DNA of 32,000 bases from Alkalilimnicola ehrlichii MLHE-1 (GCF_000014785.1 NC_008340.1:1230001-1262000); one strand, 5' to 3'; shown: positions 9,070 through 30,920, numbered from the stretch's first letter. The notes: generated by a model from the letters alone, not told the origin. Translations and numbers: made by a program.

Positions 9070-9081
9070 TCTTCGCTTCTT

Positions 9082-9289: not shown

Positions 9290-9340
9290 AATCGGCCCAG
9301 TGATTCGGGTTCTGATCTAGTGATTCAGGAGGGCAGGGCG

Positions 9341-14077: not shown

Positions 14078-14079
14078 GT

Positions 14080-14398: not shown

Positions 14399-14419
14399 AG
14401 GTGCACAAATGGGTGCACA
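14399..14419. promoter_or_regulatory. Two inverted-orientation copies of the 9-mer (AGGTGCACA, GGGTGCACA) upstream of the packaging module
   Basis: 14399-14407 (8/9) and 14411-14419 (9/9), 12-bp spacing, 23 bp upstream of the 14442 ATG and downstream of a possible TTGTAA-N16-TACCAT promoter (14355-14382). Confidence 0.45.
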
Positions 14420-14441
14420 TTAGCGAGAGGTTAGGCGCGAA

Positions 14442-14807: not shown

Positions 14808-15040
14808 TGGTCATCTGTGCCAACTGCCGCCACTACCCCGGTCCCGGCCAGCTATGCGCGGTGGCCAAGCGCCACGCCACGCACCACCGCCGTTCCTGCC
14901 GCTACCACCGGACGGACACCAGCGCCCGCCACGTCGCCACGCTCCGCCGCCTGGCGGTGGATTGGCTCCACCAGGGCGATCACAACCGCTACGCCGTAAC
15001 CCTGGACCTGGCCCACCAGGCACGGGAGGCGATGCGATGA
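14807..15040 (+). CDS. Small Cys4/His-rich protein (possible zinc-ribbon), hypothetical
   Basis: 77 aa, MVICANCRHYPGPGQLCAVAKRHATHHRRSCRYH. Strong G/C third-position bias. Start and stop both overlap the neighbours (TAATG; ATGCGATGA). Confidence 0.45.
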   Translation: MVICANCRHYPGPGQLCAVAKRHATHHRRSCRYHRTDTSARHVATLRRLAVDWLHQGDHNRYAVTLDLAHQAREAMR

Positions 15041-16428: not shown

Positions 16429-16446
16429 TACAGCGAGGTAACGACG

Positions 16447-16872
16447 ATGGCAGTTTTCAGAAGTGACAGCCCACAGCATTGGGAACAACCGTCCAGGCCC
16501 ATTAAGGAGTTCTGGAGTTCCGACCTTGAGCCGAAGGCCGACAGCAAGCCCACCCGACGCAAGGCAGACCCGAGCGCGGTGCAACGGCTGATGAACCAGC
16601 GCACCGCCACCCCGAAGGCCGACACCGCTCCGCCGCGCCGTGCTGGCCGGTATGACGCTGGTGCCGAGCGCCGCCGACAGGCCGCCGCGATGGCGGAAAT
16701 CCGCGACCGTCACAAGTCTAGTCGCGGCCTCACCCGCACCGACGCGAAGGCAAAGGCCGCTCCGGTCATGCCAGAGCCGACCACGGACAGCGCTCCGAGT
16801 GGTGGCGGGTATCAGGCGATGGTGGACGCGATCAAGGGCGCACATAAGCGGGGAGGTGATAACAATGGGTAA
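16447..16872 (+). CDS. Hypothetical basic, low-complexity protein
   Basis: 141 aa, rich in Arg/Lys/Ala/Pro, with no recognisable motif. It occupies the position where a portal gene would follow TerL in a phage. It overlaps the next ORF by 8 bp (ATGGGTAA). Confidence 0.4.
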   Translation: MAVFRSDSPQHWEQPSRPIKEFWSSDLEPKADSKPTRRKADPSAVQRLMNQRTATPKADTAPPRRAGRYDAGAERRRQAAAMAEIRDRHKSSRGLTRTDAKAKAAPVMPEPTTDSAPSGGGYQAMVDAIKGAHKRGGDNNG

Positions 16873-17437
16873 GCATGTAGACGCACTGGAAAAGCAGATT
16901 GCCGAAGAGTACCGGCTCAACGAGGAACACGCAGCCGCCGCCGACAAGGCCCGCGACGAGTATCAGGCCGCCGTGGCTGCCGGGGACATGGGAGCGGCTT
17001 CCAACTGCCGTGCCGAGGCCGAACGGCTGGACGGCCTTGCTCGTCAACATGGCGACCGCATAGACGCCCTGGAGGCGCAACGGCCCGAAGCCGAGCGCAA
17101 GGATAACGGCCCTGCCTTCCGGCAGGCGGTGAAGGTGATGGAGCAGGAGTTGCAGGAGGAAGCCGACACCCATGCCGAGCTGGCCGAGCTGGTGGGTAAG
17201 CTGGCCGATCTGCGTAAACGGCTGGACGAAGTACACGCCAGCGCCACCGCCGCCTGTCGCAAAGCCTTTCAGGCCGCCGACGCTGCCCATGAACCGCGAC
17301 CCGAAGTTGACCGGGATCGCATGGCCACCACCGCCGACATGGATGCCCTGATGCGTACAGTAAGGGAGCTGATGAACGTGGCGGGGCACCAGGCAACGCT
17401 AGTCATGAACACGCGGGATAAGGCCCGCGCCGCCTAG
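16865..17437 (+). CDS. Hypothetical acidic alpha-helical coiled-coil protein (scaffold-like composition)
   Basis: The ATG at 16865 is in frame with track ORF 16640-17437. 190 aa, starting MGKHVDALEKQIAEEYRLNEEHAAAADKARDEYQAAV..., with heptad-like Ala/Glu/Leu/Arg composition and good GC3 bias. Confidence 0.5.
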   Translation: MGKHVDALEKQIAEEYRLNEEHAAAADKARDEYQAAVAAGDMGAASNCRAEAERLDGLARQHGDRIDALEAQRPEAERKDNGPAFRQAVKVMEQELQEEADTHAELAELVGKLADLRKRLDEVHASATAACRKAFQAADAAHEPRPEVDRDRMATTADMDALMRTVRELMNVAGHQATLVMNTRDKARAA

Positions 17438-17519
17438 ACCTCGCTGGAAGTGGGGAGCGGTTATTGCCTGCACCGCTCGCGTCCGGCCCGATGGGGTGGC
17501 CGCCCACGAAACCCCTAGC

Positions 17520-17565
17520 GCCCCGGTGGCCTCACTCAGCCATCGGGGCGTGTTTTGTTTTTGGG
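17520..17565 (+). terminator. Rho-independent terminator after the packaging-module genes
   Basis: Stem GCCCCGGTGG (17520-17529) / CCATCGGGGC (17540-17549), 9/10, with a 10-nt loop, followed by GTGTTTTGTTTTTGGG. Confidence 0.55.
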
Positions 17566-17593
17566 AGCCGCCATCGCAACGGAAGCACTCGCC

Positions 17594-18058
17594 ATGTATG
17601 AGGCGGAGGCGAAGGAGAGGCAGAGGTTGTCCCCTGGGCGGCCAGTCGCGAGCGCCGGAAAAGGTCCGGAAATAATTCCGGATGTTTCTGATGATCAGCC
17701 CATCACCACCAGTCAGAAGGCCGCCATCGCAGCCGAGAAGATGGAGCCGCCCAAGCCGTCCCGCTACGAGCAAGAATCCCGCGCCAAGGCCGCCGCAGAC
17801 TTCGGCACCAATCCGCGCTATGTGTCGGATGCGAAGAGGTGGCGCAGTGCTAGGCCGCATTCTTGCATGTCATGCAAGGGGCATTCCCCCATGCAAGGCG
17901 TGCCAACATTGAAGTTTCCTATCGGTATTGGCGGTAAACGGCGTTTGTCCTATCGACCTGCGCGGGTGGTCTGGCATCCATCCGCAGAGTGGGGCGGGTT
18001 CTGGCGACCCGGTGGCCGACCGCTGGGTAAAGTGCGCTGCACCCAGTTATGCACCTAG
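17594..18058 (+). pseudogene. ParB-like/KorB-like fragment (probable remnant)
   Basis: YEAEAKERQRLSPGRP...GKGPEI...ESRAKAAADFGTNPRYVSDAKRW resembles the region after the ParB N-terminal domain in phage ParB-like nucleases, but no N-terminal domain is present. The track start (TTG at 17555) lies inside the terminator T-tract, and the 3-prime part of the ORF runs through the arm-site repeats. Confidence 0.25.
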
Positions 18059-18089
18059 CAACCGCCAATGTGCACCCACCTGTGCACCC
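18037..18089. promoter_or_regulatory. Right-arm array of 9-mer sites (candidate arm-type recombinase sites)
   Basis: Perfect TGTGCACCC at 18069-18077 and 18081-18089 (12-bp spacing, the same geometry as the left arm), plus degenerate copies CTGCACCC (18037-18044) and TATGCACCT (18048-18056), 12 bp apart. Confidence 0.5.
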
Positions 18090-18103
18090 AGATAACCCCC
18101 AGA

Positions 18104-18147
18104 CAAACAAAAAGGGCCTAAGCGAATCGCCTAGGCCCTTGTTTTGT
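18104..18147 (-). terminator. Rho-independent (bidirectional-looking) terminator supplied by the element to the reconstituted tRNA-Asn
   Basis: Stem AGGGCCTA (18113-18120) / TAGGCCCT (18132-18139) with an 11-nt loop. An A-run lies on one side and TTGTTTTGT on the other. It lies directly 3-prime of the tRNA on the minus strand. Confidence 0.6.
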
Positions 18148-18148
18148 A

Positions 18149-18224
<76 letters not shown>

Positions 18225-18327: not shown

Positions 18328-18666
18328 TCAGCAGAAATCGCGGTTGGGCATTAGCCAGCCGGCAGATGGTCGGTGACCGGCCTGTTCCGCCTCACGGTAG
18401 CGTTGGATGAAGTCGCTCACCAGCGCCTCCAGTGCGGCATCCGGATCCTTCTCATCCTCCAGGTCCACCATGGCGGGTTCGTCCTGTAGCGGGGTCTGTA
18501 TGAAGTGGCTCTGCTCGTAGCCCAACGCATGGTTGTGGATCTCATAGTAGAGCCTGAGCCTCACCGTGGTCGGGATCGAGCCGAGGCGAAAGTCCACCTC
18601 GGCGAGAAGCTCTCTGGCCTCCTCCACAATGGGGTCCTTCAGTGCCTTGACGTTAGCAGCTTGCAT
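18328..18666 (-). CDS. Hypothetical protein (112 aa)
   Basis: The ATG at 18666 is preceded by GGAGGGAAAAGCTG. The longer track ORF (to 18786) extends into an AT-rich intergenic region and is unlikely. MQAANVKALKDPIVEEARELLAEVDFRLGS...; I recognise no motif. Confidence 0.5.
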   Translation of the reverse strand: MQAANVKALKDPIVEEARELLAEVDFRLGSIPTTVRLRLYYEIHNHALGYEQSHFIQTPLQDEPAMVDLEDEKDPDAALEALVSDFIQRYREAEQAGHRPSAGWLMPNRDFC

Positions 18667-18703: not shown

Positions 18704-18717
18704 TTGCCATCTATCAA
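18704..18717. promoter_or_regulatory. FNR/DNR-like half-conserved box TTGCC-N4-ATCAA
   Basis: It matches the TTG-N8-CAA core and the right half of TTGAT-N4-ATCAA. It lies in the AT-rich divergent region between the 18666 gene and the Crp/Fnr gene. Confidence 0.3.
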
Positions 18718-18745
18718 AAAATAAAGATGTAAATGCCCCGTGTCT

Positions 18746-18759
18746 TTGCTTTGTATCAA
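18746..18759. promoter_or_regulatory. FNR/DNR-like half-conserved box TTGCT-N4-ATCAA
   Basis: Second box in the same intergenic region, about 70 bp upstream of the regulator start. Confidence 0.3.
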
Positions 18760-18824
18760 ACATAGAACTAAAGTCATAAGTAACAATATTCATAATATAT
18801 GTATCGCACCAAAGCCGGAGGATT

Positions 18825-19535
18825 GTGATGGTGACTACCAATGTCATCAGGTTGCACGAGGATTTGGAGACTAGTCCGCTCTTCTCCGGGCTGGCTGAAC
18901 GCCAGGTCTCCGAGGTTATCTCGCGCGGACACCGCCGTGTGGTACCCGGTGGCGGGACTTTGTTCAACTGCGGCGAGCCGGCAGATCAGTTTTTTCTGGT
19001 GGTCGAGGGTGCCGTGAAGTTGTTTCGCGCCATGAGTAATGGCCACGTGGTCGTCGTCAGGATCATCCGGCCGGGGGAACCCTTCGCCGCCTGCTCGGTC
19101 GTGGGCCGGCCGGACGCGACATACCCGGTGACCGCCCGCGCCTGGATGGATGTGACGGTGCTGGCGTGGTCCCGGGGGACGATGAGTAGCGAACTTCGTC
19201 GGTTACCTACGCTGCAGTACAACCTGCTTCAGCTCGTTAGCCAATACCAGGACCAGACCGTGGACCGCCTTTGTGAGTCCTCTACGCAGCCGGTCGCACA
19301 AAGGCTGGCCCACTGCCTGCTGCGACTCGCTGACCAGGCCTCCATACCCACCACGGATGGTTTGCAGCTGCGTGACCCTTTGACCCGCCAAGAGTTGGCG
19401 GAATTCTGCGGAACGACGCTCCATACCGTCAGCCGCCTGCTGGCGCAATGGGAGCGCGATGGCCTGGTGCGTGTCGGGCGCTGCCGGGTCACGCTCGCAT
19501 CCACGAAACGCTTGCAACTCCTCAGCATGCAGTAA
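18825..19535 (+). CDS. Crp/Fnr-family transcriptional regulator (DNR/NnrR-like; no FNR Cys cluster)
   Basis: cNMP-binding-like beta-roll (LFSGLAERQVSEVISRGHRRVVPGGGTLFNCGEPADQFFLVVEGAVKLF) and a C-terminal HTH (TRQELAEFCGTTLHTVSRLLAQWERDGLV). There are no N-terminal cysteines. GGAGGA RBS; the start is GTG 18825 or ATG 18828. Confidence 0.8.
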   Translation: MMVTTNVIRLHEDLETSPLFSGLAERQVSEVISRGHRRVVPGGGTLFNCGEPADQFFLVVEGAVKLFRAMSNGHVVVVRIIRPGEPFAACSVVGRPDATYPVTARAWMDVTVLAWSRGTMSSELRRLPTLQYNLLQLVSQYQDQTVDRLCESSTQPVAQRLAHCLLRLADQASIPTTDGLQLRDPLTRQELAEFCGTTLHTVSRLLAQWERDGLVRVGRCRVTLASTKRLQLLSMQ

Positions 19536-19562
19536 CCAGCCGTCGATTGCACCTGCGACAGA

Positions 19563-19576
19563 TTGTCCCAGGTCAA
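19563..19576. promoter_or_regulatory. FNR/DNR-like box TTGTC-N4-GTCAA
   Basis: TTG-N8-CAA core, about 115 bp upstream of the first cytochrome c start. Confidence 0.3.
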
Positions 19577-19689
19577 TTTGTTCTCCGGCAAAGACCTTTC
19601 CAGTGTTTAGGCGTTCACTAGGTAACGAGCCGGTGGTAAACAGCGCCGGCTCTATAACGACAACAGCTTTCTGGAGAGGTACACCGGAC

Positions 19690-20007
19690 ATGTTTCGCAA
19701 AATGATTGTATCTGTAGCAGTCGGCGGGGCGCTGCTGGCCTCCGGGGCCGCCGTGGCGGGTGACCCGGAGCGCGGTGAGCAACTCGCGACCACCTGTTTT
19801 GCCTGCCACGGGGCGCAAGGCCGCAACGACTCACCTCAGTACCCGCAGCTGGCGCAGCAGAACGAGGAGTACATCCTCATCCAACTGCAAAACTTCCAGG
19901 ACGGGAGCCGGGAAGACCCGCTGATGTCGCCCCAGGCGGCGCAACTCACTGAGCAGGACAAGAAGGATCTTGCTGCCTATTTCACGGCACAGACGCTTTG
20001 CCCATAA
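19690..20007 (+). CDS. Monohaem class I cytochrome c (c4/c553-like), secreted
   Basis: The ATG at 19690 has a GGAGAGG RBS; the track ORF from 19459 overlaps the regulator gene. Signal peptide MFRKMIVSVAVGGALLASGAAVA, haem motif CFACH, distal Met region DPLMSPQ, and a typical LTEQDKKDLAAYF tail. Confidence 0.8.
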   Translation: MFRKMIVSVAVGGALLASGAAVAGDPERGEQLATTCFACHGAQGRNDSPQYPQLAQQNEEYILIQLQNFQDGSREDPLMSPQAAQLTEQDKKDLAAYFTAQTLCP

Positions 20008-20076
20008 GCGGGTCGGCGGTCATTCCTCACACTTCGGGCGAAGGCTGGAAGCCGCGACCGAACACCGCAGCAGAGT

Positions 20077-20090
20077 TTGTTCACGCACAA
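20077..20090. promoter_or_regulatory. FNR/DNR-like box TTGTT-N4-CACAA
   Basis: TTG-N8-CAA core, about 100 bp upstream of the second cytochrome c gene that heads the nosR-containing gene string. Confidence 0.3.
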
Positions 20091-20191
20091 AGATAAAGCG
20101 TGCGGTGCGGTGGTGAAGTGGGGGTGCTTGCTGGCCGGCGACCCAATGAAAAGAACCACCACAGGCCGACTGATTACGAGGTACACGAGCG

Positions 20192-20533
20192 ATGGCACAC
20201 CGAATTTTTTTGAGCGCGCTGGTTGGGGTGGCCTTATCCATTCCGATGCTTGTCTCTGCGGAAGAGCTTAAGGGAGATCCCAACCAAGGCATGCTTTTTG
20301 CCGCGACCAGTTGTTACCAATGCCACGGGTTGACGGGCAGTGATCCTGCGTTTGATCGCTACCCTCGACTGATCGGACAGCATGAGAATTACCTGTTTAA
20401 GCAGTTGGTGGCCTTCAGGGAGGGAGATCGGGAACACACGGAAATGACGCCGATTATGGACAGGCCTCAATTCCAGAGGGATCAGGCGCTTAGGGATGTT
20501 GCTGCGTGGTATGCAGCGCAAGGCTGCGAATAG
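20192..20533 (+). CDS. Monohaem class I cytochrome c, secreted
   Basis: Signal peptide MAHRIFLSALVGVALSIPMLVSA, haem motif CYQCH, Met region EMTPIM, and an ALRDVAAWYAAQ tail. It ends 20-30 bp before nosR. Confidence 0.8.
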   Translation: MAHRIFLSALVGVALSIPMLVSAEELKGDPNQGMLFAATSCYQCHGLTGSDPAFDRYPRLIGQHENYLFKQLVAFREGDREHTEMTPIMDRPQFQRDQALRDVAAWYAAQGCE

Positions 20534-20552
20534 CCGTTAGCTTTAGCCTTTT

Positions 20553-22703
20553 GTGGAGGCCCCAGTGATCAATCGGTTTCGCCCGTTTCTGATAATTCTG
20601 TTGACCGCGCTGCTCCTGCTCCCTTTCAGCGGGGCCTGGGCAGCGGACTGGCTGGAAGACCTGTTTCCCGGCGCGGACGAGGTAGGGGAGCCAGAAGGCG
20701 ATCCCCCTGTCATCCCGCTCTTCTCTAATGGTGAGAAGGTGGGCTACGCCTTCGAAACAGTCAACTTCGCGCCAATCGGCGCGTATTCCGGCAAACCGGT
20801 CAACATGCGGGTGGGGCTGGACCTTAACGGCAAGATCACTGGGGCCCAGCTCCTTGATCACTCCGAGCCCATTGTGCTGATCGGTGTTCCGGACTCAAAA
20901 CTGGTGGAGTTTCTGGAGCAGTACGAAGGCCTGCACGTTACCGACCGAGTCCGCGTTGGTGGCCGTGACCGTGAGGGCTATATCGGAGTCGACTCCGTCT
21001 CCAGCGCCACAGTAACGGTGGTGGTGATGGGGGATTCCATCATGCGCTCAGCGCGTATGGTGGCCCGTGAGCGCGGCATTGTTGAAGTGGATACCGCGGC
21101 CCTCCGCGAGCCCGCGACCGTCCGCGAGGATATCTTCGAGCCAGCCACCTGGCAGGAACTGATTGAAATGGGGGCCCTGGGTCATCTCCACATCACCCTG
21201 GGTGACCGGGACGACGCCTTTGTCGGCACCCGCGGCGAGGGGATCGACGAGGCCCCCGAAGAGCGTCGTGACGAGACGCTCATTGAGCTCTTTTATGCCT
21301 ATGTGAACGTGCCCACCGTCGGCCGCAACCTGCTCGGCGATGACGCCTACGAGCGGATGATGGCGCGTCTTGAGGAAGGCGAGCATTTGATCGCCGTTAT
21401 GGCCACCGACGAGAGCAATTATTCGTTCAAGGGGGATGGCTGGGTACGTGGCGGTGTCTTCGACCGCATGCAGATCGTGCAGGGCGACGAGACCGTTCAG
21501 TTCCATGATCGAGACCTGATCCGACTGTACGACGTGGCCATCGACGGGCAACCGCCGCTCGACGAGAAGGAGTTATTTATCGTCCGGCAGGAGGCCATGT
21601 TCGATCCGGCCGAGCCAATCGAGCTGGAGCTGCTGGTGCGCCGCGAGGTGGGGCCCGTCGACCGGATGAACGCCCGGTTCTTCACCACCTACCAGGTGCC
21701 CGAGCATTTCCTGGATATCCCGGAGCCGCCACCCAGCCTGGAAGAGGATGACACGCCCCTGTGGCTGACGGTCTGGGAGGACCGGGTGTTCGGTATCACC
21801 GTGCTCGGCCTCGGCCTGGGGTTACTGACCCTGATCCTGCTGTTCCAAGATGTGTTGGCCCGCCGGCCGCGGCTACTGTACTGGATCCGCCACGGGTTCC
21901 TGGTCTACACGGTCGGGTTCATCGGTTACTACACCCTGGCCCAGTTGTCCGTGGTCAACGTGCTGACCTTCATGAACTCGCTGTTCACGGACTTCCAGTG
22001 GTCCACGTTCCTGATGGACCCCTATATGTTCATCCTCTGGAGCTTCGTGGCAGTGACCGTGCTGCTATGGGGACGTGGGGTCTTCTGTGGCTGGCTCTGC
22101 CCCTTCGGTGCCATGCAGGAGCTGATCAACGAGGTGGCCCGGAAGCTGAGGGTGCCCCAGTTTGAGCTGCCCTTTGCGGTGCATGAGCGACTCTGGGCCT
22201 TGAAATACATCATTTTGCTGGGCCTGTTCGCGGTGTCGCTGCACTCGCTGATCGAGGCCGAGCGGTATGCCGAGATTGAGCCTTTCAAGACCGCGATCTC
22301 TATGCAGTTCATGCGCGAGTGGGCCTTTGTGCTCTACGCGGTAGGGCTCTTGGTAGTCGGGGTCTTCATGCGCAAGGCCTTCTGCCGGTATGTCTGCCCC
22401 CTGGGGGCGGCCCTGGCCATCCCAGCACGGATCCGTCTGTTCGACTGGCTGCGCCGTCACCAGGAGTGCGGCAGCCCCTGCCAGATCTGCGCCAACGAAT
22501 GCGAGGTGCAGGCCATTCACCCGGACGGGCACATCAATGCGAACGAGTGCCACTACTGCCTGGACTGCCAGGTGACGTACTGGAACGACCGAAAGTGCCC
22601 ACCAATGATTGTTGGCCGTAAACGCCGGGAAAAGGCGGCGCGGCAAGCCGAGGGGCGGGCGAATAAAGCCTTCCCTGATCTGAAGAAGCCCCAGGAAGCG
22701 TGA
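20553..22703 (+). CDS. nosR: NosR, membrane-bound FMN/iron-sulfur regulator and electron-transfer protein for N2O reductase
   Basis: The likely start is GTG 20565 (GGAGG at 20555-20559), giving the signal/TM MINRFRPFLIILLTALLLLPFSGAWA. It has a periplasmic FMN-binding-type domain, multiple TM helices, CX3CP motifs CGWLCPFGA and CRYVCPLGA, and a C-terminal ferredoxin-type CGSPCQICANECE and CHYCLDCQVTYWNDRKCP. Confidence 0.9.
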   Translation: MEAPVINRFRPFLIILLTALLLLPFSGAWAADWLEDLFPGADEVGEPEGDPPVIPLFSNGEKVGYAFETVNFAPIGAYSGKPVNMRVGLDLNGKITGAQLLDHSEPIVLIGVPDSKLVEFLEQYEGLHVTDRVRVGGRDREGYIGVDSVSSATVTVVVMGDSIMRSARMVARERGIVEVDTAALREPATVREDIFEPATWQELIEMGALGHLHITLGDRDDAFVGTRGEGIDEAPEERRDETLIELFYAYVNVPTVGRNLLGDDAYERMMARLEEGEHLIAVMATDESNYSFKGDGWVRGGVFDRMQIVQGDETVQFHDRDLIRLYDVAIDGQPPLDEKELFIVRQEAMFDPAEPIELELLVRREVGPVDRMNARFFTTYQVPEHFLDIPEPPPSLEEDDTPLWLTVWEDRVFGITVLGLGLGLLTLILLFQDVLARRPRLLYWIRHGFLVYTVGFIGYYTLAQLSVVNVLTFMNSLFTDFQWSTFLMDPYMFILWSFVAVTVLLWGRGVFCGWLCPFGAMQELINEVARKLRVPQFELPFAVHERLWALKYIILLGLFAVSLHSLIEAERYAEIEPFKTAISMQFMREWAFVLYAVGLLVVGVFMRKAFCRYVCPLGAALAIPARIRLFDWLRRHQECGSPCQICANECEVQAIHPDGHINANECHYCLDCQVTYWNDRKCPPMIVGRKRREKAARQAEGRANKAFPDLKKPQEA

Positions 22704-22750
22704 TATGCCGGGGGGCGTAAGCGAGTGTTCGATGTAAAGCCGAGAGGGCG

Positions 22751-24679
22751 ATGACAATGAAAGAGATGGACACAAAGACCACCACGGTGGACACCACCAA
22801 CAGTGAGGAATCGGCGGGCCTGCGGAACCCGAGCCGTCGTAAGTTCCTCGGTACCACGGCTGCCGTTGGGGCGGTCAGCGCCGCGGGTGCCGCCGGCACC
22901 GGTGCGCTGGTTCGCTCCGGTGAGGTACAGGCAGCCGACCAATCCATTCTAGAGAAGATCCACGTAGGGCCGGGGGATCTCGACGAGTACTACGGCTTCT
23001 GGAGCGGCGGTCACAACGGCGAGGTTCGGGTTTACGGCGTGCCGTCGATGCGGGAGATCATGCGCATCCCGGTATTCAATGTCTGTTCCGCAACCGGCTA
23101 TGGCATCAGTAACGAGAGCAAGCGGATTCTGGGCGAAAGCTCTAAGTTCCTGAATGGCGACGCCCACCACCCGCATATCAGTTACACCGATGGCAAGCAC
23201 GACGGCCGGTACCTGTTTATCAACGACAAGGCCAATACCCGCGTCGCCCGGGTCCGGCTTGACATCATGAAGACGGACAAGGTGACCACCATCCCGAACG
23301 CCCAGGCGATCCACGGCCTGCGGCTGCAGAAGGCGCCGAAAACCGGCTATGTCTACTGCAACGGTGAGATGATCATTCCGTTGCCCAACGACGGCACCGA
23401 GCTGGAGGATCCCAAGAAGCACTTCTCCGTCTGGTCCGCGTTGGATTCTGAGACCATGGAGGTGGCCTGGCAGGTGCTGGTGGATGGCAACCTGGACAAC
23501 ATGGACTCCAGCTATTGTGGGAAGTACGGGGCATCCACCTGCTACAACTCCGAGCACGGCTTCACGCTTGAGGAGAAGATGCGGGCGGAGCGCGACCATG
23601 TGGTCATCTTCAATATCCCGCGCATCGAGGAGGCCGTCGAGAATGGCGAATACATGACCTTCGGTGACAATGGCGTCCCGGTGGTCGATGGCCGAAAGGG
23701 TTCTCAGCTTACCCGGTACATCCCGGTGCCCCGTAACCCCCACGGCCTGAACGGCTCCACCGACGGCAAGTACTTCATTGCCAACGGCAAGCTGTCGCCC
23801 ACGGTCACCATGATCGACATTTCCCGTTTGGATGACCTGTTCGATGACAAAATCGAGCCGCGGGATGCGGTCGCCGGCGAGCCGGAACTGGGTCTGGGGC
23901 CACTGCATACTACTTTTGACGGGCGCGGCAACGCCTACACTACGCTGTTCATCGACAGCCAGGTGGTCAAGTGGAACATGGAGGATGCGGTCCGCCACTT
24001 CCAGGGCGAGAACGTCAACTACATCCGGCAGAAGTTGAACGTGCACTACCAGCCGGGCCACCTCAAGGCCACGCTGGCCGAATCCAGTGAAGCGGACGGC
24101 AAGTGGTTGTTCTCCCTTAATAAGTTCTCGAAGGACCGCTTCCTTCCCGTGGGGCCGCTGCACCCGGAGAACGATCAGATGATCGACATCTCCGGCGAGG
24201 AGATGAAGCTGGTCCACGATACCCCGACCTTTGCGGAGCCGCATGACTGCGTGGTGGTTCGGCGTGACCAGATCCAGACCAAGCAGATCTGGGAACGCGA
24301 CGATCCCTACTTCGCTGAAACGGTGAAGATGGCGGAGGAGGACGGTGTCACTCTGACCCGTGATAATAAGGTCATCCGTGACGGCAACAAAGTGCGGGTC
24401 TATATGACCCTGATTGCGCCGGAGTTCGGTATGAACCACTTCCGGGTGAAGCAGGGTGACGAGGTGACCGTGGTCTGCACCAACCTCGACATGATCCAGG
24501 ACCTCACCCACGGCTTCTGTGTGTGTGATCATGGGGTCAGTATCGAGGTCAGCCCGCAGCAGACGGCATCGGTGACCTTTACCGCCGACAAGGCCGGGGT
24601 CTACTGGTATTACTGCAACTGGTTCTGCCATGCCATGCACATGGAGATGGCCGGTCGCATGATCGTGGAACCCGCGTAA
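22751..24679 (+). CDS. nosZ: Nitrous-oxide reductase NosZ (Tat-exported, clade I type)
   Basis: Twin-arginine signal [17 protein letters not shown], a His-rich beta-propeller (DAHHPHISY) and a C-terminal CuA motif HGFCV...[14 protein letters not shown]. Confidence 0.95.
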
Positions 24680-24687
24680 GGCCGAGC

Positions 24688-24721
24688 GCTGCCGGACCGG
24701 GCACCGCACCGGTTCGGCAGC
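24688..24721 (+). other. Strong intercistronic hairpin between nosZ and nosD
   Basis: GCTGCCGGACCGG (24688-24700) pairs with CCGGTTCGGCAGC (24709-24721) at 12/13, with an 8-nt loop and no T-tract. It starts 9 nt after the nosZ stop. Confidence 0.5.
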
Positions 24722-24734
24722 CTCTGAGAGACTG

Positions 24735-26063
24735 ATGCGAATGACCTTGAAATCCATCGTTACGCTGATGCTGTTGCTCACCCTCTCCCTGATGAAGGGG
24801 GCCTGGGCCGAGCCAACGTATGTGCAGCCCGGGGGTATGGGTCTGCAGGAGGCCATTGATCAAGCCGAACCTGGCGATACGCTCTCGCTGCGACCCGGGG
24901 TCTATAGAGGCAACTTCCGGATCGATAAACCCTTGACCCTGAAGGGGGATAACGGGGCCATCCTGGATGGCCAAGGGGTCGGTGTCACCCTGTCCATTAT
25001 TGGTGCACCAGATACCCGTGTGGAGGGCCTGATCATCCGCAACAGTGGCATCGATATGACTGAAATGGATGCTGCGATCTTTCTCGACAAGGGCTCCCAC
25101 CGCACAGTTATTACAGGTAACCGGATTCATTCCCGTGCCTTTGGGATATGGGCCGGGGAGAGCGATGAGGTGCTGATTATCGCCAACCGGATCAGCGGTG
25201 ATACCCGTATGCGTTCGGCAGAGCGCGGCGATGGCATCCGCATGTTCCGGCTGACAGACTCGGTCATCATCGCCAACGAGATCTGGGAAGCCCGCGACGG
25301 CATCTATATCGATGTCAGTCATCACAACCGTCTGATTGGCAACGTCCTGCATAATCAGCGGTATGGTATTCATTACATGTTTTCCCACACCAACGATGTG
25401 TTGGTGAACCGAACCTATGATAACCGCATGGGCTACGCCCTGATGATGTCCCGTCACCTCAATGTACAGGGGAATACCTCTATCAGGGATCAGAATTACG
25501 GGATTCTTCTTAATGCGGTCACTTATTCCTATCTCGCAAGGAACCGTTCTCTTGACGTGATGCGGGGCCACCCGCCCGGTACGCCGGATGGGCATGGCGT
25601 TCTTGGCGCCGAGGGCAAAGCCGTTTTTATTTACAACTCGCAACACAACGAATTTGAAGACAACCTGTTCGCCCGTGCGGAGATCGGCGTCCATCTGACA
25701 GCCGGCTCCAACAACAACCACTTTCACGGCAATTCATTCGTCGGGAACCAGCACCAGGTGATGTACGTCGCGAATGTGGAGCAGGAGTGGTCTCACGAGG
25801 GGCGGGGTAACTACTGGAGCGATTACATGGGTTGGGATCTCAGGGGCGATGGCATCGGTGATGTCCCGTATGAGCCCAACGATGCCATGGACGGCATCCT
25901 CTGGAAATACCCTGCCGCCAAGATCCTTTTGAACAGTCCTGCGGTGCAGGTCCTGCGCTGGGTTCAGCGGCAATTCCCGGTGCTTCGCCCCAGTGGCGTG
26001 AAGGACAGCTATCCGCTGATCAGGCCTGCGCATGATTTGAAGCTCCTGGAGGAACTCGGGTGA
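24735..26063 (+). CDS. nosD: NosD, periplasmic parallel beta-helix copper-delivery component
   Basis: Signal peptide MRMTLKSIVTLMLLLTLSLMKGAWA and repeated beta-helix turns (IRNSGID, GNRIHS, ANRISG, ANEIWE, GNVLHNQRYGIHYMFS, GNSFVGN). Its stop overlaps the nosF start (GTGA). Confidence 0.9.
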   Translation: MRMTLKSIVTLMLLLTLSLMKGAWAEPTYVQPGGMGLQEAIDQAEPGDTLSLRPGVYRGNFRIDKPLTLKGDNGAILDGQGVGVTLSIIGAPDTRVEGLIIRNSGIDMTEMDAAIFLDKGSHRTVITGNRIHSRAFGIWAGESDEVLIIANRISGDTRMRSAERGDGIRMFRLTDSVIIANEIWEARDGIYIDVSHHNRLIGNVLHNQRYGIHYMFSHTNDVLVNRTYDNRMGYALMMSRHLNVQGNTSIRDQNYGILLNAVTYSYLARNRSLDVMRGHPPGTPDGHGVLGAEGKAVFIYNSQHNEFEDNLFARAEIGVHLTAGSNNNHFHGNSFVGNQHQVMYVANVEQEWSHEGRGNYWSDYMGWDLRGDGIGDVPYEPNDAMDGILWKYPAAKILLNSPAVQVLRWVQRQFPVLRPSGVKDSYPLIRPAHDLKLLEELG

Positions 26064-26986
26064 GCAAAGTAGTCAGTCTAGAGAGCGTCGATAAGCACTT
26101 CGGGTCGGTCCACGCGGTCACCGGTCTCACCCTCGGGCTGGAGGCCGGCGAGGTGCTGGGTTTGATGGGCCACAATGGGGCCGGTAAATCGACCACAATG
26201 AAACTTATCCTGGGCTTGCTGACGCCAACGGCCGGCAGCGTGGAGGTCTTTGGAAAGAGTCCTTCACAAAAGGAGGCGGCGGACCTGCGCGGCAGGATCG
26301 GCTATCTACCGGAGAATGTTTCCTTTTACGAGCAACTGACCGGCCGAGAGGTGCTGCGGTACTTTGCGGATCTGAAGAAGGTGGCCCGTAGCCTGGTCGG
26401 GACACTGCTCGAGCGGGTCGGCCTGGCCCACGCCGCGGACCGAAAGGTGCGGACCTATTCCAAGGGCATGCGTCAGCGGCTGGGCCTGGCGCAGGCGCTT
26501 TTGGGGGACCCGCAGCTACTCCTGATGGATGAGCCCACGGTGGGGCTTGATCCCATCGCGACCCGCGACTTCTACGACATGATGGATGACCTGCGCGGGA
26601 AGGGGGTGAGCATCATTCTCTGCTCTCACGTCCTCCCGGGCATTGAGCGCCATATCGACCGCGCCGCCATCATGGGCCAGGGCAAGCTGCTTGCCCAGGG
26701 CACACTCGATGAACTGCGGCGCCTCGCTGGGTTGCCTCAGACCATCAAGGTCTTTACCCGCACGCCCGACCGGATCCTCGCCCATGCGGAGGGCACCGGA
26801 TTGGAGGGGCGTCGGGTGAACGGGCAGGCCGTCGAGATCGTTACCCACGATGGCCAGAAGGTGGACGTGCTCAGGCACCTGCTGGCCAGTGAGGGCGTGG
26901 ACGACATGGAGTGGCAGCCGGCCTCGCTGGAGCACCTCTACGTGCACTTTGACAAACAAATGGAAGGGAGTGGGGCGCCGCGATGA
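26060..26986 (+). CDS. nosF: NosF, ABC ATPase
   Basis: Walker A GHNGAGKST, signature YSKGMRQRLGLA, Walker B LLLMDEPTVGLD. ATGA overlap with nosY. Confidence 0.9.
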   Translation: MSKVVSLESVDKHFGSVHAVTGLTLGLEAGEVLGLMGHNGAGKSTTMKLILGLLTPTAGSVEVFGKSPSQKEAADLRGRIGYLPENVSFYEQLTGREVLRYFADLKKVARSLVGTLLERVGLAHAADRKVRTYSKGMRQRLGLAQALLGDPQLLLMDEPTVGLDPIATRDFYDMMDDLRGKGVSIILCSHVLPGIERHIDRAAIMGQGKLLAQGTLDELRRLAGLPQTIKVFTRTPDRILAHAEGTGLEGRRVNGQAVEIVTHDGQKVDVLRHLLASEGVDDMEWQPASLEHLYVHFDKQMEGSGAPR

Positions 26987-27810
26987 ACGCCATTTTCACT
27001 GTTGCCGGCAAGGAGTTTAGAGATGGTCTGAGAAACCGATGGGTGCTAGCCATTACCATCGTCTTTGCGCTCTTTGCGATCGGTCTGGCCTGGTTTGGGG
27101 CGGCGGCGGCCGGTCATGTCGGGTTTACCGGTGTGGCCACCACGATCATCAGCCTGGCCACCCTGGCTGTGTTCCTGATCCCGCTGATCGCGCTGATGCT
27201 CGCCTACGACAGCATCGTCGGGGAAGATCAGCAGGGCACCCTTCTGCTTCTGCTGACCTACCCGTTGTCACGCAGTCAATTGGTCACGGGTAAGTTCCTG
27301 GGCCATGCCAGCATTCTCGGGCTGTCCACGCTGGTGGGGTTCGGGGTTGCGGGTGTGGTCATCGGGCTGCTCGGGGGCGGAGTTGATGCCGGCCAGCTGG
27401 CGGGCGGGTTCGGCATGTTCATTGGCAGTGCGCTGCTGCTGGGCTGGTCCTTCATTGGAATGGCGTACCTGATCAGCGTGATGGTGGGGGACAAGTCCAA
27501 GGCCGCCGGCCTTGCCCTGGTGGTCTGGTTTCTGTTCGTTCTGGTCTATGACCTGGTGCTGCTTGCACTGCTGGTGGGGACCGAGGGGGCCGTCTCTTCG
27601 GTCCTGTTCCAGGTGCTGCTGCTCTTCAACCCCACTGATGTCTTCCGACTGATCAATCTGACCGGTTTTGAGGCGGCAAGGGAGTATGCGGGGCTGACGT
27701 CCGTGGGTGCCGACGCCTATTCGCTCCCCCTGCTGTTTGGTGTTTTGGCGGTTTGGGCGGTTGTGCCCTTTCTCCTGGCGATGTGGCGATTTCGTCACAG
27801 GACTGCTTGA
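26983..27810 (+). CDS. nosY: NosY, ABC-2-type permease
   Basis: 275 aa with about 6 hydrophobic helices and a conserved N-terminus MNAIFTVAGKEFRDGLRNRWV. It sits between nosF and nosL. Confidence 0.85.
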   Translation: MNAIFTVAGKEFRDGLRNRWVLAITIVFALFAIGLAWFGAAAAGHVGFTGVATTIISLATLAVFLIPLIALMLAYDSIVGEDQQGTLLLLLTYPLSRSQLVTGKFLGHASILGLSTLVGFGVAGVVIGLLGGGVDAGQLAGGFGMFIGSALLLGWSFIGMAYLISVMVGDKSKAAGLALVVWFLFVLVYDLVLLALLVGTEGAVSSVLFQVLLLFNPTDVFRLINLTGFEAAREYAGLTSVGADAYSLPLLFGVLAVWAVVPFLLAMWRFRHRTA

Positions 27811-27819
27811 GGTTTATAG

Positions 27820-28401
27820 ATGACTGATCGGCGTACCCTGTTGAAGCTGTTTTCCGGCCTCCCCCTAGTGGGCCTGACGGTGGCGTGCAGCGAGACGGAG
27901 GACCAGACAGCGGCCTGCTCACCCAGGCCCTTCCACGACGATGAACTCTGTGTGTTGTGCGGCATGACGATTGTCGAATACCCCGGGCCGAAAGCCCAGG
28001 CCTGTGTCGATGACGGCACCCGGAACCTGGGATTTTGCTCCACCACTGACCTGTTTGCCTGGGCACTGCAGCCGGAGAACGCCACCCGGCTGCGCCGGGC
28101 CTACGTCCATGACATGGAGGGGCAGTCGTGGGAGTCCCCCGATGACAGCCTGCTGATGGTGGCTAAGCAGGCATATTACGTCGTCGGCGATCCCCGGATC
28201 GCTGCCATGGGCCTGACTCTGGTGCCCTTCGGTGACGACCGGCGGGCCGAAGCGCATAAACAGCACCTGGTCGATAACGGTGTGGACGACGCCCACATCC
28301 TGACCTACGACGAGATCGACTGGGATGTCCTAAACGAACTGAGTTCCGCGGTCGGCTCGATGGACTTCGAGCGCGCGCGGGAAATCATGGGTGACATGTG
28401 A
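27820..28401 (+). CDS. nosL: NosL copper-chaperone lipoprotein (copy 1)
   Basis: Signal peptide with lipobox-like LTVAC and the NosL-family CVLCGM motif. It sits directly after nosY. Confidence 0.85.
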   Translation: MTDRRTLLKLFSGLPLVGLTVACSETEDQTAACSPRPFHDDELCVLCGMTIVEYPGPKAQACVDDGTRNLGFCSTTDLFAWALQPENATRLRRAYVHDMEGQSWESPDDSLLMVAKQAYYVVGDPRIAAMGLTLVPFGDDRRAEAHKQHLVDNGVDDAHILTYDEIDWDVLNELSSAVGSMDFERAREIMGDM

Positions 28402-29153
28402 TGCAGGAAGGAAAGATTCAAGAAGAGTCCGATTATGAGGTCTCCAGCTGGGGGCAACTGGCCCCTGGCGAGGAGGTGCAGCGGGGACCGATGCTGATCT
28501 CGGACTGGAGCACCAACGAGCGGCCGGTGGCATCCGTGATCTGGCTGCACGGCCTTGGTGCGAATGGGACCGACTTTGATGGGGTTTTCCCCAAGATGCG
28601 GCAAACCAACCGTATTGGCATCCACCACGTGGTGCCCCACGCCCCGGTGCGGCGGATCACCGTGAACGACGGGGGGCTGCTCAGGGGGTGGTTTGATCTG
28701 TTCAGTCTGGATCTCGACGCCGAGGAGGATGTCGAGGGCATCCGCGATAGCCATGAACGGATCGTTGATCTGATCAGAGATGAGCAGGATGCAGGCATCC
28801 CGGCCAACCGGATCGTGCTGGCGGGCTACTCCCAGGGCGGCGCCATGGCCCTGCACACGGGGTTGCGGTACCCGGAGCCGCTCGCGGGCGTGGTCTGCCT
28901 TTCCGGCTATCTGCCGTTGCCGGAAACGCTGCAGGCGGAACAGCACCACGCCAACGCCGGTACCCCCATCTTCATGGCCCATGGCACGCGCGATGATGTC
29001 ATGGACTTCGGGCGTGCCGAGCAGGGGCGCGAGAAGCTGAAGGCCCTCGGTCACGACGTGCATTGGGAGGATTACCCGATTATGCATGAGGTGTGCATTG
29101 AGGAAATGGACGCGCTGGATGAGTGGCTCATGGCGCGCCTGAAGCAGGACTGA
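28398..29153 (+). CDS. Alpha/beta hydrolase, carboxylesterase/phospholipase family
   Basis: VIWLHGLGANGTDF oxyanion region, nucleophile elbow GYSQGGAM, HGTRDDVM (Asp) and YPIMHEV (His). The start (GTG 28398 or ATG 28401) overlaps the nosL stop. About 45 aa of extra N-terminus make a later start (MLISDW) possible. Confidence 0.8.
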   Translation: MMQEGKIQEESDYEVSSWGQLAPGEEVQRGPMLISDWSTNERPVASVIWLHGLGANGTDFDGVFPKMRQTNRIGIHHVVPHAPVRRITVNDGGLLRGWFDLFSLDLDAEEDVEGIRDSHERIVDLIRDEQDAGIPANRIVLAGYSQGGAMALHTGLRYPEPLAGVVCLSGYLPLPETLQAEQHHANAGTPIFMAHGTRDDVMDFGRAEQGREKLKALGHDVHWEDYPIMHEVCIEEMDALDEWLMARLKQD

Positions 29154-29186
29154 TGGGTCTCCGGTCACCTATTCGAGGTCACACAA

Positions 29187-29801
29187 TTGAACAGCATTAC
29201 CCAGAACTTTGGGGCTCATGGCCGCCTTCTGACCGCTCTGGCCGTTGCACTCCTCGGGGGCGGTTTCGCCTCCTCGGCTGCGGCCTGCCTGGAGGCCGGC
29301 GAGGAGACAGTCGGCGAGGTCAGTGATTCCTTCTGTGGTCAGGAGGGCTGGCCGCTCTTTTATGCCGGTGAGGTTGACGGGATCAAGACCTTCTTCGACG
29401 CCGAGTCCGGTGATCCGCAGATGCGATGGGACAGCGCCACCTGCCATCAGTGCGTGGGCGGCGTGGACACCTCATTTTCGGATGGTTACAGCAACACCTA
29501 CGAAGTGCTGTGGGACTACGGCGACTCCGACGGCCTTGAAGGGTTTGATAGCGCTCGTTACTGCGCGGAGAAAGGCGAGGGGTGGTTCCTGCCCGCCATA
29601 GAGCAATTGGAACTGGTCTGGGAAAACCGGGACCGGATCGACTACTCGCAGGTCGGATGGTCCGATTCCGCGATGCCCTATTGGTCATCCACCGTGGACA
29701 AGGATACCGGCCAGGTACTGCATGTGCGGTTCATGGACGGTCAGCGGGCCATGTTTTTTACGCATTTCAGTCGGCTGGTGCGCTGTGCCCGGGCTGAATG
29801 A
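29187..29801 (+). CDS. Secreted DUF1566-like (Lcl C-terminal-domain-like) protein, Cys-rich
   Basis: TTG start with GAGG 8 nt upstream. Signal-like LLTALAVALLGGGFASSAAAC. GWFLPAIEQLELVW...YWSST...VRCAR matches the DUF1566 pattern (GWRLPt..EL...yWSSt...vRCVR). Confidence 0.6.
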   Translation: MNSITQNFGAHGRLLTALAVALLGGGFASSAAACLEAGEETVGEVSDSFCGQEGWPLFYAGEVDGIKTFFDAESGDPQMRWDSATCHQCVGGVDTSFSDGYSNTYEVLWDYGDSDGLEGFDSARYCAEKGEGWFLPAIEQLELVWENRDRIDYSQVGWSDSAMPYWSSTVDKDTGQVLHVRFMDGQRAMFFTHFSRLVRCARAE

Positions 29802-29823
29802 GGGTGTACAGAGGTAGAGGTAT

Positions 29824-30369
29824 ATGCTGACCAGGCGGTCCGCGATCATCCTGCTGGGACTCTCCCCCCTGATTGCGTTGAAGGGCTGTGGGGACGGATT
29901 GCGGGCCCAGTGTGATGCGGCCACCACGGCATCGGATGAGCGCTGTGCGCAATGCGGCATGGTGGTCGTGGACTATCCCGGCCCCAAGGGGCAGGTCTGC
30001 GTGGATGATGGCCGGAAGAACCTCAGTTTCTGCTCCACCACAGACCTGTTTGCCTGGGTGATGCAGGCGGAGAATGCTGGCCGTGTTCGCCAGGCGTACG
30101 TGCATGACCTGGGGGAGACCGACTGGGAGCAGCCGGACGACACGGCGTTGATCGTGGCCGATAAGGCGCTGTACGTCATGGGGGATCGCAGGATGGGGGC
30201 CATGGGGCCGACCCTCATCCCGTACGCCAGCGAACAGAAAGCCGAGCGCCACGCCCAGTCGCTTGAGAAGGGCCAGGTGCTCACCTATGAGGAGATCGAC
30301 TGGGATGTCCTCAACGCTGTCACTCAATCAATGCTGGACAGCCCGGAAAGGCCCGAATATAGGCGGTGA
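29824..30369 (+). CDS. nosL: NosL-family lipoprotein (copy 2, paralog)
   Basis: Lipobox LIALKGC and the CAQCGM motif. By-eye alignment to copy 1 gives roughly 55-60% identity (YPGPK.Q.CVDDG..NL.FCSTTDLFAW...AYVHD...LTY.EIDWDVLN). The two copies share a 20-nt identical stretch, GAGATCGACTGGGATGTCCT. Confidence 0.8.
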   Translation: MLTRRSAIILLGLSPLIALKGCGDGLRAQCDAATTASDERCAQCGMVVVDYPGPKGQVCVDDGRKNLSFCSTTDLFAWVMQAENAGRVRQAYVHDLGETDWEQPDDTALIVADKALYVMGDRRMGAMGPTLIPYASEQKAERHAQSLEKGQVLTYEEIDWDVLNAVTQSMLDSPERPEYRR

Positions 30370-30428
30370 CCCCAAACCCGCGGTGGGTGATCCCGCGGTT
30401 TTTCAGAAACTGGTACGAGGATATTCCG

Positions 30429-30803
30429 ATGAAGAGTTATTCTTTGCCCCTGGTGGTGACTTTGGCACTGCTCGTATGGTCCGTGGCGGGGCTGGCCCAG
30501 GATGTTGAGCGATCTGAAGTCTACCCGGTGAACGGGATTTTTGTCTCCTATGATGAGGCGGATCATGAAATTGTGGTGATTCATGAGGAGGTGCCCCAGG
30601 TCATGCGGGCCATGCGCATGATGCTCCGCCTGCCGGAAGGCGAGCCGGCCCCGCAATTCACCCACGGTGACAAAATTCGTTTTGGGATGCAGCGGCGTGC
30701 CGTTCAGGGCCACCAATGGTTCGCAATGGACCTCGAACCGTTACCGGAAGAGACCGCGCTGGTGCTGCCGGAGAAGGCGCTGGAACGCGAGGGGCTGAAA
30801 TAA
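30429..30803 (+). CDS. CusF-like periplasmic Cu(I)-binding protein
   Basis: The ATG at 30429 has GAGGA 7 nt upstream; the track ORF from 30366 is extended. Signal peptide MKSYSLPLVVTLALLVWSVAGLA. GIFVSYDEADHEIVVIHEEVPQVMRAMRMMLRL...GDKIRFGM fits the CusF pattern (His plus Met-x-Met on a small beta-barrel). Confidence 0.65.
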   Translation: MKSYSLPLVVTLALLVWSVAGLAQDVERSEVYPVNGIFVSYDEADHEIVVIHEEVPQVMRAMRMMLRLPEGEPAPQFTHGDKIRFGMQRRAVQGHQWFAMDLEPLPEETALVLPEKALEREGLK

Positions 30804-30862
30804 AAAACAAGAAAGTTCCTGAGGGGCCGGCGTTGGGCTGAGCCTCTGACTTCCTCCGTGTA

Positions 30863-30896
30863 CCCCGGGTCGGCTTGTCCATCCGGGGTTTTTTCT
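30863..30896 (+). terminator. Rho-independent terminator ending the nos-associated gene string
   Basis: CCCCGG (30863-30868) / CCGGGG (30883-30888) stem followed by TTTTTTCTG. Confidence 0.6.
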
Positions 30897-30920
30897 GTCT
30901 GCCGGCTGGTGCGTCCCGGG

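Follow-up and report, generated by a model that had tools for sequence, protein, structure and literature searches.

To our knowledge, N2O reductase (NosZ) is the only biological sink for nitrous oxide (N2O), a greenhouse gas, and it fails under copper scarcity. We investigated the end of the nos gene cluster in a 32,000-nucleotide (nt) stretch of Alkalilimnicola ehrlichii MLHE-1 (NC_008340.1:1230001-1262000; hereafter the window, with positions counted from its first letter). In this cluster nosL is followed by four extra genes, encoding an esterase, a secreted DUF1566-like protein (here P3), a second NosL and a CusF-like protein. This tail is most likely the extended 3' end of the nosRZDFYL operon, ending at one terminator. 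It unites known families (NosL, CusF-like, APT-like (acyl-protein thioesterase) esterase and DUF1566) in a new and selectively maintained combination, and we found no account of such a tail, of a nosL duplication, or of a CusF or esterase linked to nos in the searchable literature. The features of the cluster are as follows, with family scores in bits where applicable.

18825-19535, + strand: Crp/FNR-family regulator at the head of the cluster (Pfam cNMP_binding and HTH_Crp_2)
19690-20007, + strand: monohaem c-type cytochrome of 105 amino acids (aa) (PF00034; also 105 aa in another strain, L001)
20192-20533, + strand: second monohaem c-type cytochrome (PF00034)
20553-22703, + strand: nosR (NCBIfam NF046105, 1045.7 bits against a cut-off of 1000)
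22751-24679, + strand: nosZ, clade I, dependent on twin-arginine translocation (Tat) (TIGR04244, 1032.7 bits against a cut-off of 625)
24735-26063, + strand: nosD (NosD/Beta_helix Pfam match on the identical L001 gene)
26060-26986, + strand: nosF, ATP-binding cassette (ABC) ATPase (by comparison with L001)
26983-27810, + strand: nosY, ABC-2 permease (PF12679)
27820-28401, + strand: nosL1 (PF05573, 116.7 bits against a cut-off of 24)
28401 (ATG) or 28398 (GTG) to 29153, + strand: esterase, Abhydrolase_2 (PF02230, 163.9 bits)
29187-29801, + strand: P3, secreted DUF1566/Lcl_C-like protein with a TTG start (homology and fold match)
29824-30369, + strand: nosL2 (PF05573, 142.7 bits against a cut-off of 24)
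30429-30803, + strand: CusF/SilF-like protein of 124 aa with a Sec signal (PF11604, 28.6 bits against a cut-off of 27)
30862-30895, + strand: intrinsic-terminator-like hairpin (30862-30889) followed by U6 (from folding; kept in the metagenomic relative L006)

Architecture of the extended nos cluster

The cluster belongs to clade I, containing a Tat-type NosZ together with NosR, NosD, NosF, NosY and NosL in order. It shares with the canonical nosRZDFYL clusters of P. stutzeri (7osf-7osj), P. denitrificans and Shewanella denitrificans (7og7) the gene order, the Tat-dependent NosZ, and strong NosL family matches with CxxCGM, C-x3-D and Met ligands. It differs from them in the four genes added past nosL, a second NosL among them, in the twin-arginine (RR, Tat-like) NosL signals of this haloalkaliphile clade, and in the two cytochrome c genes and the Crp/FNR gene 5' of nosR. 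The same Crp/FNR gene also heads the nos cluster of Alkalispirillum.

An earlier note, made from the sequence alone, had described the tail as five open reading frames (ORFs) on one strand with short gaps, and all five were recovered on the + strand at the coordinates it gave. The gaps are 9 nt between nosY and nosL1, 33 nt between the esterase and P3, 22 nt between P3 and nosL2, and 59 nt, the largest, between nosL2 and the cusF-like gene. The overlapping stop and start of nosL1 and the esterase, which the note had also reported, are seen at 28401 as a ATGTGATG overlap (TGATG, spacing -1), and a GAGG-type ribosome-binding site precedes every tail gene. The single terminator that it had placed at 30863-30896 corresponds to the hairpin and U6 at 30862-30895. 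Terminator-like matches within genes occur at chance frequency (12 observed against 9.7 expected). We additionally considered a hairpin between nosL2 and the cusF-like gene as an internal signal, and rejected it: its stability does not exceed that of shuffled sequence, and it is not kept in L006.

A box search identified FNR-like boxes at 18704-18717 and 18746-18759, 5' of the Crp/FNR gene. These (18704-18759) are the sole boxes in a promoter position, with two further two-mismatch matches lying within nosR and nosF, and the same search found no FNR-type box inside or just upstream of the tail.

In GC content, overall and at third codon positions (GC3), the tail equals the other nos genes and is sharply unlike the downstream ABC ATPase gene. 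A recent transfer of the P3-nosL2-cusF module can therefore be excluded. Across the whole nos cluster (18800-30900) per-gene GC is 0.54-0.63, compared with 0.65-0.69 in the upstream and 0.75 in the downstream flank, which suggests horizontal acquisition of the entire cluster.

Conservation and identity of the tail genes

We compared 10 loci from genomes and 15 from metagenomes, with a few look-ups besides, a sample that is small and phylogenetically clustered; the survey of nos clusters is small because a NosL-pattern genome scan gave just 10 loci, the A. ehrlichii genome itself not being among them. The chromosome of the other strain (L001; CP184336.1, GCA_049200435.1) is 99.7% identical to the window. 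The metagenomic relative L006 has 85.5% DNA identity and the same gene order from nosZ through the terminator, past which synteny stops. At 6760-7626, past its terminator, L006 carries an FNR-like box, then a gene for a cytochrome c and the first part of a second and divergent nosR-like gene, where the window has an ABC ATPase gene; L006 may have a second nos-type locus.

Between the window and L006, the ratios of nonsynonymous to synonymous substitution (dN/dS, Nei-Gojobori) are 0.014-0.077 for nosD, nosF, nosY and nosL1 (0.045 for nosL1), and 0.118, 0.185, 0.134 and 0.125 for the esterase, P3, nosL2 and cusF-like genes, respectively. These low values indicate that all four extra genes are selectively maintained, under looser constraint than the core. 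In Alkalispirillum mobile (L019) the cluster runs Crp-cytc-nosRZDFYL and then the esterase, followed by unrelated convergent genes, and in a further metagenomic lineage (L020) the order is nosRZDFYL-esterase-metK. The P3-nosL2-cusF-like trio is confined to Alkalilimnicola among the loci compared, and none of the 10 other nos loci recovered has a second NosL within 10 kb.

Judged from these sequences, the tail is a composite of two layers: an older nosL-esterase pairing, and a three-gene module that was added later and in Alkalilimnicola only. Two of the extra genes, those for the esterase and the CusF-like protein, are found beside nos in other soda-lake bacteria too. Roughly two independent events associate the esterase with nos genes, and two the CusF-like protein. 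The earlier note's view of the tail as a nos extension thus stands as regards its single strand, uniform composition, one terminator and purifying selection, but not as a single evolutionary unit. Of the co-occurrence with nosZ in relatives that it had raised, the whole tail is found in L006 and the nosL-esterase part in Alkalispirillum and L020, whereas P3, nosL2 and the cusF-like gene are particular to Alkalilimnicola.

For NosL, both copies match PF05573 and carry CxxCGM, as the note had claimed; their identity is 48-49%, and not the 55-60% that it had estimated by eye. In the NosL of Shewanella, a structural Zn is bound by Cys59, Cys88 and Asp92, Cu(I) is held by Met64 and Met145, and Cys62 serves as a bridge between the two metals (PMC8457098, Prasser et al.). 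NosL1, NosL2 and the L006 orthologues of both carry the corresponding motifs CxxCGM, FCSTTD and AMG without variation. As all six ligands are kept, both paralogues look competent for Cu(I) binding and delivery. The closest structural matches of NosL2 are the NosL of P. stutzeri (7osf, 2e-31) and of Shewanella (7og7, 5e-26).

NosL1 clusters with the single NosL of Alkalispirillum (59% identity), and NosL2 forms the sister branch (58% to the Alkalispirillum NosL, 48% to NosL1). These identities show the duplication to be old, and exclude a recent tandem duplication as the source of NosL2. NosL1 is 96% and NosL2 86% conserved between the window and L006, and NosL2 has evolved three times faster. 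This conservation is in keeping with a role of NosL1 as the primary, constrained partner of NosDFY and of NosL2 as a putative auxiliary.

Signal-peptide types were assigned by eye throughout. On this basis the lipobox is LTVAC in NosL1 and ALKGC, with an atypical Lys at -2, in NosL2, each preceded by RR and a hydrophobic stretch. These twin-arginine-like starts (MTDRRTLLKL and MLTRRKFII, at 27820-27890 and 29824-29890) recur in the NosLs of L019, L020, L007, L008 and L028, while Pseudomonas-type NosLs carry Lys-type Sec signals instead. The RR-type signals suggest Tat export of a pre-folded, possibly Zn-loaded NosL. The NosLs of this haloalkaliphile clade also have two additional conserved Cys residues. 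A strict co-occurrence of the RR-type signal with the esterase was considered and excluded, because the NosL of L028 has RR and no esterase lies in range.

The CusF-like gene starts at the ATG at 30429, which has its own GAGGA ribosome-binding site; an overlapping GTG start is not the real one. A direct phmmer search of the protein against the PDB gave spurious LacI matches only, and a word-indexed protein search with it, as with P3, returned only itself and the L006 orthologue. Further relatives were found by phmmer on fetched loci. A profile built from 12 homologues matched SilF (8bxj, 7e-10) and CusF (9e-8 for 2vb2, to 7e-7), in agreement with the family named in the earlier note. H52, M59, M62 and M64 are invariant among the 12 homologues and form the predicted Cu(I) site; H52, M62 and M64 align to H36, M47 and M49 of CusF, and M59 takes the position of Trp44, in a loop one residue shorter.

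The protein thus resembles the CusF and SilF of CusCFBA/Sil efflux systems in being small and secreted, in a profile alignment that spans their OB-fold (oligonucleotide/oligosaccharide-binding) core, and in keeping the His and two Met. It differs from them in the exchange of Trp44 for Met, in the shorter loop and in a conserved LPxxTxLxLP tail at the C-terminus, which CusF lacks. It also falls below the NCBIfam CusF cut-off: that family gave no match for the protein, and 30 bits against a cut-off of 143 for its homologue in L010. No cusCBA genes adjoin it, its neighbours being nos/denitrification and copper-uptake genes, and we found no gene for an RND (resistance-nodulation-division) pump, membrane fusion protein (MFP) or outer membrane factor (OMF) beside the cusF-like gene in the window, L006, L010 or L025-L031.

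The closest relatives of the CusF-like protein (38-45% identity) come from Billgrantia campisalis (formerly Halomonas) and from seven metagenomic contigs. In these loci the cusF-like gene follows genes for a NapC/NirT-EB_dh cytochrome, a small unknown protein and, in some (L010, L025), a cupredoxin. It lies either 1.2 kb upstream of nosRZDFYL, or by genes for a sigma-54 regulator, DsbD_2 and a TonB-dependent copper receptor that adjoins nos. By gene neighbourhood, this is a nos-linked CusF-like subfamily present in two unrelated haloalkaliphilic lineages. In both lineages there are organisms that were enriched at pH 10 on N2O or nitrate, and relatives of Alkalispirillum and of Halomonas campisalis respire N2O or nitrate at that pH (PMC2525850).

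The complete Billgrantia-type module (L010 11020-19445; L025-L031) comprises the NapC/NirT-EB_dh fusion cytochrome, the cupredoxin in L010 and L025, an unknown protein of about 184 aa with a weak PepSY match, the CusF-like protein with a His-rich N-terminus, the sigma-54 regulator, DsbD_2, the TonB-dependent copper receptor, an unknown protein of 184 aa, a cytochrome c and the nos genes. From its content it looks like a copper-uptake/denitrification island.

The esterase was correctly recognised in the earlier note as an alpha/beta-hydrolase carboxylesterase, matching PF02230 with 163.9 bits. Its best solved relative is the P. aeruginosa carboxylesterase PA3859 (8e-43), followed by human APT1/2. 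The predicted triad S144/D198/H229 is intact and invariant in nine aligned esterases, and the GxSQGG, HGxxD and H motifs are present. It is 40-50% identical to the bacterial members of the APT/carboxylesterase family (among which, with human APT1/2, we compared PA3859, P. fluorescens esterase II and Francisella FTT258), and has the Ser-Asp-His triad and GxSQGG in common with the family. It is set apart by a start that overlaps the stop of a lipoprotein copper chaperone inside a respiratory operon, and by an N-terminal extension of about 28 residues in the Alkalilimnicola and Alkalispirillum versions. The protein lacks a signal peptide.

The esterase gene lies directly 3' of nosL in the window, L006, L019 and L020. 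In A. mobile the encoded protein is 59% identical and the start again overlaps the nosL stop, an overlap kept in three lineages whose esterases are 54-59% identical. A neighbour-joining tree of 122 homologues groups the four esterases that adjoin nosL into a single clade. Separately, a divergent esterase of about 40% identity is present in Halovibrio salipaludis and Halomonadaceae KBTZ08, where its gene has a TIGR01778 TonB-dependent copper receptor on one side and nosR on the other. On gene order, none of the other extra genes is as widely conserved as the esterase, and its linkage to nos is one of lineage level. To regard it as unlinked to nos would therefore be too negative.

Finally, P3 scores 19.7 bits against PF07603 (Lcl_C/DUF1566), under the cut-off of 34.9. 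A full HMMER (phmmer) search recovered 303 homologues, several of them above the Pfam cut-off, and P3 has the motifs W(F/Y)LP, YWSS and VRCxR in common with DUF1566 members. A structural model (mean predicted local distance difference test score, pLDDT, 87) best matched the C-terminal domain of Legionella Lcl (8q4e; E 1e-4, probability 1.0), and then C-type lectins. Because of the homology to above-cut-off members and the fold match of this confident model, P3 is assigned to DUF1566/Lcl_C.

P3 has the motifs and a C126-C200 pair in common with Lcl, and differs in its single domain, an extra N-terminal Cys pair, a CHQC motif, the sub-threshold Pfam score and the nos-operon setting. The earlier description of a Cys-rich secreted DUF1566-like protein holds for the family, but not for the richness in Cys, as P3 has just 6 Cys in 204 aa, the first of which is a conserved structural residue and not a lipobox Cys.

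A putative copper relay and its alternatives

NosL binds Cu(I) and is needed for the CuZ centre and, under copper limitation, for both copper centres; it is described as essential only when copper is limiting (PMC6530538). Copper is described as passing from NosL to NosD of NosDFY and on to NosZ, with matching structures (7osf-7osj, 7znq), and E. coli CopA as able to load CusF (work listed in PMC6769254). How NosL is itself loaded, and the periplasmic copper route, are still open (PMC8457098, PMC6530538).

We propose that the extension arose in two steps. A gene for a cytoplasmic APT/carboxylesterase-type hydrolase would have joined the end of nosL, a step shared with Alkalispirillum and one metagenomic lineage. 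P3, the NosL2 lipoprotein and the CusF-like periplasmic protein would then have been added in Alkalilimnicola only. The tail would be co-transcribed with nosDFYL1, and the esterase expressed along with NosL. By analogy with P. stutzeri and P. denitrificans, NosL1 would be the primary chaperone, docking on NosDFY and giving Cu(I) to NosD and then NosZ. The soluble CusF-like protein may take up periplasmic Cu(I) at its His-Met3 site, the copper source possibly being a P1B-ATPase, as in the transfer from CopA to CusF in E. coli, and may hand it to membrane-anchored NosL2, to NosL1 or to both. Such a relay would widen or buffer copper flux towards NosDFY and N2O reductase in a haloalkaline habitat, where we assume copper to be scarce.

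With moderate confidence, we favour the reading of nosL2 and the cusF-like gene as an auxiliary periplasmic Cu(I) relay within the nos operon extension. We are more confident that the extension is conserved and encodes Cu(I)-handling proteins, and less so that these are dedicated to NosZ. A copper-supply role gains independent genomic support from the closest CusF-like relatives, which lie again in nos/denitrification islands. The expanded copper-supply route suggested in the earlier note is accordingly retained in part: both NosLs keep their ligands, and the CusF-like protein keeps its His/Met/Met and has nos-linked relatives, but the five genes are not one unit in evolution, and the closest outside homologue of P3 is not near nos.

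Several points weigh against the relay, and against a function in NosZ maturation for the tail as a whole. CusF proteins classically serve efflux and not supply. The CusF-like protein matches PF11604 with a marginal score, and an AlphaFold2 model of it, from a two-sequence alignment, has an unusably low pLDDT of 48.8. Five distant members (L032-L036) occur on contigs without a nos-gene match, and in L033 and L034 the gene follows one for a pyrroloquinoline quinone (PQQ) sugar dehydrogenase. Neither the sister genus Alkalispirillum nor any of the 10 other nos loci surveyed has the P3-nosL2-cusF-like trio, which is therefore dispensable for N2O reduction generally. We found no link of P3 to nos outside Alkalilimnicola, and the gene of its closest outside homologue (58% identity) has a PAS histidine kinase on one side and an RND pump on the other. 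The expected co-transcription of the tail with nosDFYL1 has tight spacing and the single terminator as its sole basis. The position of the esterase could reflect one historical insertion, since its nearest relatives outside the clade are housekeeping genes by lysA or cyaY, and a single insertion followed by retention is a serious rival to a functional association.

The last point extends to P3 if both genes are passengers. The nos island would have inserted beside, or captured, the resident housekeeping carboxylesterase in an ancestor of Alkalilimnicola and Alkalispirillum, and would have gained P3 later, with no role for either in NosZ maturation. We regard this as a substantial possibility, although one that falls short of probable. 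The next-closest esterases (50-56% identity) lie in lptM-lysA-dapF in Aquisalimonas, in a cyaY-esterase arrangement in L023 and in two more unrelated contexts. No second close A. ehrlichii paralogue appears in the best 120 matches, so that the nos-linked esterase may be the organism's only orthologue, and a single event would explain all the nosL-adjacent esterases, as they form one clade. DUF1566 has no known metal function, and P3 may indeed be a passenger, though a selectively maintained one. Against this, the nosL/esterase overlap has been retained in three lineages despite the divergence of the esterases, a separate, divergent esterase lies within the Halovibrio and KBTZ08 nos clusters, between the copper receptor and nosR, and both esterase and P3 are under purifying selection in the operon. 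For the esterase, the independent Halovibrio arrangement and the retained overlap speak for a function.

It is possible, but rather unlikely, that nosL2 and the cusF-like gene form a general module for periplasmic copper homeostasis or detoxification, or serve another cuproenzyme, and merely lie downstream of nos. CusF and SilF have a known efflux-associated chaperone role (PDB names; PMC6769254), NosL-family proteins are also found outside nos clusters (PMC8457098), distant CusF-like members occur in non-nos contexts, and NosL2 evolves threefold faster than NosL1. However, no cusCBA/RND, copA or multicopper oxidase gene adjoins the tail, the gaps of 22-59 nt are too short to hold an obvious separate promoter for the module, the nos terminator is also its end, and the closest CusF-like relatives belong to nos/denitrification islands of an unrelated family.

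We consider it improbable that NosL1 and NosL2 are instead specialised by copper centre or partner (for example, NosL1 for NosDFY and CuZ, and NosL2 for CuA), and do not act in series with the CusF-like protein. Published accounts disagree on whether NosL serves CuZ only, or CuA too (PMC6530538; PMC8457098), and the paralogues are old and both retain all ligands. Nevertheless, nothing in the NosL sequences distinguishes partner specificity, organisms with a single NosL assemble both centres, and the adjacency of nosL2 and the cusF-like gene suggests joint action.

More doubtful still is a joint reading, in which the esterase is an unrecognised component of NosZ maturation or copper acquisition in haloalkaliphiles and the CusF-like protein is the missing upstream Cu(I) donor for NosL. 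The part given to the esterase is suggested by the overlap of its start with the nosL stop, and by the Halovibrio relative that adjoins the TonB-dependent copper receptor. Such an esterase could cross the membrane with RR-signal NosL by Tat hitch-hiking, as proposed for NosPQ with NosZ, or alternatively could cleave a copper carrier that contains an ester by hydrolysis, much as Fes acts on enterobactin.

NosP and NosQ, whose genes lie between nosL and nosR, are lineage-specific accessory proteins that safeguard the maturation of NosZ and are required only at low pH (bioRxiv 10.64898/2025.12.16.694761). They set a precedent for the addition of lineage-specific accessory genes 3' of nosL in a clade I cluster, and their genes are linked to an extreme of pH. 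As described, NosP and NosQ are small, lack signal peptides and bind NosZ, whereas the tail encodes known families, three of them exported. Given this lack of signal peptides, and their description as proteins not characterised before, NosP and NosQ are probably unrelated to the tail proteins; P3 and the CusF-like protein have signal peptides, which makes an equivalence unlikely.

If the favoured relay is correct, the second, intact NosL and the dedicated CusF-like protein are a concrete candidate donor and relay pair for NosL loading, with relatives of the latter nos-linked again in other soda-lake denitrifiers. The nosL-esterase pairing would add an enzymatic step to a pathway now viewed as pure metal trafficking, and the parallel to NosPQ would be that nos clusters gain lineage-specific helpers at pH extremes.

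Neighbouring regions of the window

We additionally identified an integrative island of about 9 kb directly upstream of the nos cluster (9077-18196). A 53-nt direct repeat (9077-9129 and 18144-18196), a copy of the 3' half of a tRNA-Asn gene (18149-18224, - strand), flanks the island on both sides. Within it lie the gene for a P4-type integrase (9320-10735) and large ORFs (942, 605 and 265 aa) without a Pfam match. The nos cluster lies outside the island, on the 5' side of the tRNA-Asn.

A protein of about 112 aa, ending in GWLMP and without a signal peptide, is encoded divergently from the nos regulator or nosR (window 18328-18666, L019 531-869 and L007 2304-2648, all on the - strand). It was identified in Alkalilimnicola, Alkalispirillum (74% identity) and Halovibrio (32% identity), had no match in Pfam, NCBIfam or the PDB, and may represent an undescribed nos-associated gene.

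Past the cluster, an insertion sequence with a DDE_Tnp_1 transposase (L001 12587-14275, corresponding to about 31700 in the window) splits the oligopeptide-type ABC ATPase gene in L001, a gene that is intact in the window. Upstream of the island, an ORF of 1237 aa at 4768-8481, with a weak Pyr_redox_2 match only, adjoins genes for a TetR regulator and an HlyD-family protein on the opposite strand.

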